Assembly: GCA_000146465.1 (NCBI GenBank)
Contig: CP001948.1
Length of the DNA: 64,000 bases
Reading direction: 5' to 3' (one strand)
Shown: piece by piece, positions 18,569 through 18,933 of the stretch
Position numbering within the stretch: position 1 is the first letter of the stretch
Layout of the letters: each line of letters opens with the position of its first letter
The notes under the pieces: generated by a model
Databases searched by the model: none
Told to the model about the DNA's origin: nothing
What the model saw: only the letters and a program-made list of their open reading frames with translations
Made by a program: the position numbers and the translations under genes

Positions 18569-18933
18569 TCAGAAGCAGGGCTGCTCCCCAGAGACATAAG
18601 TCAAGTCGGAAGAAGAAAGTTTATTTCGCATTGTACTGCTTGACCATGTTAATAAAAACCTTCCCTGCAGGCGTAGATGGGCATATGACCCTCCTGCAAA
18701 AATACGTCTGCATGACTTGCATTTCCATATTCCAACTGCCGTTCTCTTCACACTCTTCTTTCCACATGCCTCACAGCTGTACTTGGCCCTCTGTGTTTCA
18801 AGAACCGCTTTCATTCTCTTACGGAGAGTCGATCCATATCTTGCTCCGAAAGAGCCTGCAATCCCTACCTTCTTGGTTTTTCCCTATAAGTTAGTCTGCT
18901 TCAGAATCCCCTTGGTCCCAAGTCACTTACCAT
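18569..18933 (-). CDS. RPL43: 60S ribosomal protein L37ae/L43 (eL43). Exon 1 is the ATG alone (18931..18933); a 47-nt intron follows; exon 2 is 18569..18883
   Basis: Spliced product [69 protein letters not shown] matches eL43 ([24 protein letters not shown]...YTCSFCGK...AVGIWHCGSC...AGGAW). STMRNKL resembles STIRRLR. The C-terminal tail is extended. Confidence 0.85.
18884..18930 (-). other. Spliceosomal intron (47 nt) placed immediately after the start codon of the eL43 gene
   Basis: Minus-strand read ATG|GTAAGTGACTTGGGACCAAGGGGATTCTGAAGCAGACTAACTTATAG|GGAAAAACC: a GTAAGT donor, an ACTAAC branch-point-like element 11 nt from the AG acceptor, and an in-frame TAG inside the intron. Confidence 0.8.

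Follow-up and report, generated by a model that had tools for sequence, protein, structure and literature searches.

A canonical intron almost certainly follows the start codon of the single-copy eL43 gene of Encephalitozoon intestinalis

Introduction

Where does translation of ribosomal protein eL43 (L37a/L43) begin in the 64-kb stretch of DNA analysed here (the window), and is the N-terminus of the protein separated from its start codon by an intron? The original prediction placed a 47-nt intron directly after the initiator ATG on the minus strand. Having examined the locus and its orthologues, we are nearly certain that the single-copy E. intestinalis eL43 gene carries a canonical U2-type GT-AG intron in phase 0 right after the initiator. 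The intron is already known, being in the public record and described for related species. Its importance beyond correct annotation is small, and prediction of full-length eL43 needs it.

Results

Anatomy of the intron

The coordinates of all features are collected in Table 1. On the minus strand the intron reads GTAAGT ... GCAGACTAAC ... TATAG, and the first base of exon 2 is 18883 (GGA AAA ACC AAG AAG GTA GGG). The proposed ATG followed by GTAAGT, the length of 47 nt and the single-codon first exon were all correct to the base when compared with the minus-strand sequence. A strict GUAAGU 5′ splice site and GT-AG boundaries are those of the U2-type class, a YUAAC motif lies a few nucleotides 5′ of the terminal AG, and the intron stands at the very 5′ end of a gene for a ribosomal protein, with ATG alone as exon 1. 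The AG sits 5–6 nt past the branch motif ACTAAC. From the consensus, the branch adenosine is presumed to be 18891, 7 nt before the G of the 3′ splice site.

Table 1. Features of the eL43 locus and of the remainder of the window, with their positions and the basis of each assignment
Feature	Position	Strand	Basis or remark
Ribosomal-protein promoter signal AATTTTTTTTACCC (AAATTT-like and CCC-like motifs)	18953-18940	−	published E. cuniculi L37A string
Exon 1 of eL43, initiator ATG alone	18933-18931	−	sequence; single codon
Predicted spliceosomal intron, GT-AG, phase 0, 47 nt, GTAAGTGACTTGGGACCAAGGGGATTCTGAAGCAGACTAACTTATAG	18930-18884	−	sequence, frame logic, gene spans
5′ splice site GTAAGT	18930-18925	−	complement of ACUUAC(C) in the U1 snRNA 5′ end
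TGA stop in the ATG frame	18903-18901	−	unspliced translation
Conserved 10-nt block preceding the branch motif, TGAAGCAGAC (in the sister species TGGAGCAGAC)	18903-18894	−	pairwise identity
Branch-site motif ACTAAC	18895-18890	−	sequence; YTAAC kept in 7/7 taxa
3′ splice site TATAG	18888-18884	−	TAG/G invariant in 7 taxa
Exon 2 of eL43	18883-18621	−	true stop TAA 18623-18621 after the missing base is restored
C-run minus one base (CCC; CCCC in the newer assembly), frameshift site	18681-18679	−	alignment to GCA_051312775.1
59-aa ORF between POB3/SSRP1 and eL43	19005-19184	−	no Pfam match
218-aa ORF	17846-18502	−	no Pfam match
452-aa Ser-rich ORF	16453-17811	+	no Pfam match
tRNA-Leu, anticodon CAG, 81 nt	7929-8009	−	Rfam and ARAGORN
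Ubiquitin-eL40 fusion	55272-55667	−	Pfam ubiquitin and Ribosomal_L40e; continuous ORF, without intron

Removal of the intron opens the full-length homologous frame, and its retention brings a stop or a frameshift, the length of 47 nt not being a multiple of three. Read through the intron, the ATG frame runs for 10 codons and then meets TGA (18903-18901), the intronic stop that had been predicted, so that a 10-residue peptide results. The TAG that closes the intron (18886-18884) is itself a stop in the exon 2 frame and abuts the GGA of exon 2 on its upstream side. Since this TAG closes the exon 2 frame, no unspliced ATG can supply the eL43 N-terminus; an upstream in-frame ATG, which the original prediction had named as the possible alternative to splicing, is thereby excluded.

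The effect of intron removal on the protein was assessed against the Pfam profile Ribosomal_L37ae (PF01780; cut-off 21.9 bits). The ORF starting at MKAVL scored 62.8 bits over profile positions 23-68, and the spliced product 105.4 bits over positions 1-68, which bears out the claim that splicing restores the N-terminus. When the spliced product was also repaired for the frameshift described below, it reached 117.4 bits over positions 1-82 of 85. The 23 residues before the internal Met, held in the original prediction to be real coding sequence, are present in the join of ATG and exon 2, and 21 aligned codons of this stretch show the pattern of coding constraint reported below. The four cysteines of a zinc ribbon (CEAC and CKSC) can be read from the eL43 sequence.

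Matches to GTAAGT-N(8-38)-ACTAAC were counted in the 64 kb; there was one occurrence vs. 0.10 expected from shuffled sequence. We regard a chance origin as negligible because the intron lies directly after an ATG behind a ribosomal-protein promoter string and because its removal exactly restores a conserved frame.

Promoter signal and start codon

Directly before the ATG at 18933-18931 the minus strand reads GGAGAATTTTTTTTACCCATCAAA, with ATCAAA (18939-18934) between the promoter signal and the start codon. For E. cuniculi L37A the published upstream string is ‘ATAATTTTTTTTACCCATCAAA (intron)’ (Peyretaillade et al., 2009, PMC2803860 additional file 3). The same string, ATAATTTTTTTTACCCATCAAA, precedes the ATG in L007 and is found in the window with one change; the mean pairwise identity of the promoter string among the five close taxa is 0.96. 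Ribosomal-protein genes have been described as having 5′ UTRs of <7 nt and an AAATTT-like plus CCC-like signal (Peyretaillade et al., 2009, PMC2803860), and both properties support 18933-18931 as the true start. The transcription start would accordingly be expected a few bases 5′ of the ATG and 3′ of the AAATTT-like/CCC signal.

Expected course and efficiency of splicing

Judging from the consensus and the literature, U1 would pair with GUAAGU and U2 with ACUAAC; the U1 snRNA of Encephalitozoon has an ACUUACC motif that matches the 5′ splice site (Belkorchia et al., 2017, PMC5499648). The branch adenosine would then attack the 5′ splice site, and AUG would be joined to the GGA at 18883. From the spliced mRNA a full-length, 88-aa zinc-ribbon ribosomal protein would be made; an unspliced transcript would lead to the 10-residue dead end and to no eL43.

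That the E. intestinalis intron is actually spliced we would argue by analogy with published RNA-seq data for E. cuniculi, in which all previously annotated introns were confirmed to be spliced (Grisdale et al., 2013, PMC3629993). In the same species splicing was inefficient, 30 of 37 introns being <50% spliced and 22 of 37 <20%, and every retained intron brought in stops or frameshifts (Grisdale et al., 2013, PMC3629993). Given such inefficiency in Encephalitozoon, most eL43 transcripts may keep the intron.

Conservation of the intron among orthologous loci

Orthologous loci were aligned for seven taxa: E. intestinalis (the window), E. romaleae, E. hellem, E. cuniculi and three Encephalitozoon-like microsporidia assembled from public sequencing runs, L003 (SRR21023579), L005 (DRR353006) and L010 (SRR21633403). 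The loci share their neighbours, namely the POB3/SSRP1 gene, an ORF of ~59 aa, eL43 and an ORF of ~217 aa. The intron was found at the identical position in all seven taxa. Its length is 47 nt in the window, 48 nt in both E. romaleae and E. hellem and 49 nt in E. cuniculi (these three from gene spans), 49 nt in L010, 45 nt in L003 and 30 nt in L005.

The signals ATG/GTAAGTG, YTAAC and TAG/G are invariant in all seven taxa. In the five closest taxa pairwise identities average 0.96 for the ATG with the 5′ splice site, 0.40 for the intron interior, 0.88 for the 10 nt before the branch motif, 0.91 from the branch site to the 3′ splice site and 0.91 for the first codons of exon 2. The position is thus kept in orthologues while the interior drifts. 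The intron is inherited. All Encephalitozoon species that were examined have it at this site, as do other microsporidia.

From the 3′ splice site up to the internal Met there are 21 aligned codons, whose variable sites are distributed 4/1/19 over codon positions 1/2/3. Summed over all pairs, there are 185 synonymous vs. 27 non-synonymous codon differences. The distribution over codon positions and the excess of synonymous changes together indicate that these 21 codons are translated, in a frame that only splicing opens.

The gene calls available for L003, L005 and L010 each cut eL43 at an internal Met, giving proteins of 63, 76 and 82 aa. These calls begin there because the intron is absent from the gene models.

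Prior annotation and source species

The spliced translation of the window is identical, residue for residue and with the frameshifted tail included, to the 105-aa protein ADM11859.1 / XP_003073219.1 / UniRef E0S824; the record ADM11859.1 bears the title 60S ribosomal protein L37A (L43), E. intestinalis ATCC 50506. Because the two are equal, the intron must already have been annotated by the depositors of the 2010 genome. In the newer assembly GCA_051312775.1 (CM119895.1) the gene spans 314 nt for 88 aa and a stop, which implies the same 47-nt intron. The window differs from this E. intestinalis locus by one base in 6,314 nt, an identity that upholds the taxonomic anchor to Encephalitozoon drawn earlier from the intron. 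By this intron the window is confirmed as Encephalitozoon DNA; public records and the literature already contain both this fact and the need of the intron for predicting full-length eL43.

A frameshift in exon 2

The sole difference between the window and the newer assembly across the 6,314 aligned nucleotides is the C-run in exon 2, in which the window lacks one base. As written in the window, the exon 2 frame continues to a false stop at 18571-18569; with the base restored, the protein has the C-terminus that is conserved in all relatives and ends at 18623-18621. In a protein search the corrected product matched an 88-aa ribosomal protein L43 of E. intestinalis at 100% identity, and it equals UTX45613.1, KAL7345405.1 and others exactly. 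The ORF taken in the original prediction for an N-terminally truncated eL43 is indeed truncated at that end; its C-terminal part is wrong, being a product of the frameshift and not genuine eL43 sequence. Among PDB sequences the best match is E. cuniculi eL43 in the ribosome structure 7QEP (chain P3, E = 1.3e-48), whose sequence as deposited opens with the N-terminus that exon 2 encodes; a deposited sequence does not prove that these residues were resolved.

Telomere-to-telomere re-sequencing of E. intestinalis has since covered the original strain, ATCC 50506, and three more isolates (PMC10158259, PMC12697097). In four newer protein records of the species (UTX45613.1 and three KAL73... accessions) the product is intact, with 88 aa; one of these records is presumably from the re-sequencing of ATCC 50506 (PMC10158259). 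Since nothing else differs over 6.3 kb, and since the missing C falls in a homopolymer and is present in the four intact newer records, its absence is most likely a base-calling or homopolymer error of the 2010 assembly. Through this one base a wrong, 105-aa eL43 has been propagated into GenBank, RefSeq and UniProt (ADM11859.1 / XP_003073219.1 / E0S824).

The true stop TAA is embedded in AATAAA (18620-18625, minus strand), a polyadenylation signal reported for E. cuniculi. The eL43 genes of E. romaleae, L003 and L005 have the same AAATAAA arrangement at the stop.

Comparison with known microsporidian introns

The intron annotated in L37A (L43) of E. intestinalis ATCC 50506 is at the same locus and shows no difference from the one described here. 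The newer records of the species (UTX45613.1, KAL7345405.1) differ by one extra C at 18679-18681 and give the correct 88-aa product. In E. cuniculi, L37a (L43) on chromosome VII (AL590447.1, CAD25633.2) has an intron at the same phase 0 position after the ATG, and it shares with the window the 5′ splice site GTAAGTGA, the branch region GGAGCAGACTAAC and the promoter string. The E. cuniculi intron is, however, 49 nt long vs. 47 nt here, its interior sequence differs, and exon 2 is one codon longer (MGKGTKK vs. MGKTKK). An L37a intron has been described in E. cuniculi and in Octosporea bayeri, and it is among the originally annotated ribosomal-protein introns of E. cuniculi (PMC2784321). In PMC2803860 additional file 3, L37A carries the flag ‘(intron)’ both for E. 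cuniculi and for Anncaliia algerae.

The eL43 intron shares with the known class of start-codon-proximal ribosomal-protein introns its GT-AG boundaries, the GUAAGU and branch motifs, the site at the codon after ATG and the premature stop on retention. This class was described by Katinka (2001), Lee (2010) and Grisdale (2013), as summarised in PMC6349667 and PMC3629993. The bias of introns toward the 5′ end has been explained as survival by escape from reverse-transcriptase-mediated loss (cited in Whelan et al., 2018, PMC6349667). Ribosomal-protein introns of Encephalitozoon are typically ~25 nt long (PMC6349667), and the introns of E. cuniculi range from 22 to 76 nt (PMC3629993). The eL43 intron, at 47 nt in the window, does not have the typical length of ~25 nt; it departs from the class in this respect only, being about twice as long and still within 22-76 nt. 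The original prediction had called a short intron after the ATG typical of Encephalitozoon; this holds for the position, and ‘short’ has to be taken in a relative sense.

Like the long introns of the Poly-A/S23 family (Whelan et al., 2018, PMC6349667), that of eL43 exceeds ~25 nt and is conserved upstream of the branch motif. It lies, however, in another host gene and is 47 vs. ~76 nt long. With an interior identity of 0.40 and no stable stem-loop, the eL43 intron was rejected as a member of this family.

Alternative explanations

If there were no splicing, translation would begin at the internal ATG (18814-18812) and yield a truncated eL43 (MKAVLETQ...), with the GT...AG a coincidence. The ORF list does have the protein begin at MKAVL, and inefficient splicing in Encephalitozoon is on record (PMC3629993). 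Yet the 21 codons upstream of that ATG vary in the 4/1/19 manner given above and encode a near-identical protein in seven taxa, the residues they add correspond to positions 1-22 of the Pfam profile, invariant splice signals enclose a scrambled interior, and the promoter string of ribosomal-protein genes precedes the upstream ATG and not the internal one. We consider translation without splicing extremely improbable. The C-run deletion might also be real, in which case the aberrant 105-aa C-terminus would be that of a true pseudogene or variant and the intron would belong to a decaying gene. The shifted tail is common to the window and the 2010 protein ADM11859.1, as such a variant would have it. 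Against this stand the location of the deletion in a homopolymer, as the sole difference in 6,314 nt; the four newer E. intestinalis records, intact at 88 aa; and the repaired C-terminus, which extends the Pfam match to position 82 and is shared by all relatives. Moreover, the 64-kb window showed no further match to eL43, and the orthologous loci are syntenic. A decaying gene is thus very unlikely, and a spliced, intact eL43 remains the preferred reading of both the intron and the frameshift.

Within that spliced gene, the 10-nt block that precedes the branch motif may represent an extended branch site with additional U2 pairing or a protein-binding site. It reads UGGAGCAGAC, and UGAAGCAGAC in the window, and lies at the same place in L002, L007, L008 and L010. 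No second copy of the extended branch motif beyond chance was found, and an Rfam scan of the window returned one tRNA only and no snRNA. One could imagine that UGGAGCAGAC extends the pairing with U2, as has been put forward for the long Poly-A/S23 introns, and, together with a length of 45-49 nt, marks an intermediate, better-spliced class of intron with eL43 as the third host gene of an extended branch site, perhaps tuning eL43 expression; we hold this to be possible and rather unlikely. The 10 nt and the intron length could instead serve a regulatory device that sets the amount of eL43, by controlled retention that ends in the 10-codon dead end or by autoregulation of eL43. The identity of 0.88 before the branch site vs. 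0.40 in the interior and the length held at 45-49 nt in six taxa are compatible with such a device, and regulation by intron retention in ribosomal-protein genes of E. cuniculi has been raised, without strong support (PMC3629993). However, compared with shuffled controls none of six orthologous introns showed excess folding stability (z from −0.39 to +1.48), the 30-nt intron of L005 is without the upstream motif, and no strong compensatory role of splicing in ribosomal-protein genes was seen (Grisdale et al., PMC3629993). We judge a regulatory device unlikely. A canonical intron of the start-codon-proximal class remains the explanation that we prefer.

Other features of the window

A relaxed scan for GTA[AG]GT ... 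[ACT]TAA[CT] ... AG on both strands gave six further matches, three short and three longer (72-89 nt). The candidates at 9109-9152 (plus strand) and 15626-15660 (minus strand) were rejected because continuous longer ORFs read through them, and that at 53623-53648 (plus strand) because it is antisense to an ORF. Among the three class-sized candidates in the window there was accordingly no other credible intron.

The tRNA-Leu gene lies inside a 502-aa, TTG-started ORF of the opposite strand (7816-9324, plus strand). The 5′ part of that ORF is, on account of the tRNA, probably non-coding.

Several ORFs flank eL43. Counterparts of the 59-aa ORF (58-61 aa) are called in E. intestinalis, E. cuniculi, E. 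hellem and two relatives, and are uncalled in the E. romaleae locus and in a second E. cuniculi assembly; the ORF may encode a conserved small protein. The 452-aa and 218-aa ORFs are lineage-specific hypothetical proteins. In related Encephalitozoon loci, genes of ~213-218 aa are found at the site of the 218-aa ORF, and genes of variable size at that of the 452-aa ORF.

In a scan of the window for the promoter motif, the sole other ribosomal-protein gene was the ubiquitin-eL40 fusion. Directly before it stands AAATTTTTGCCCTTTAAGA, a string identical to that published for the L40 fusion of E. cuniculi.
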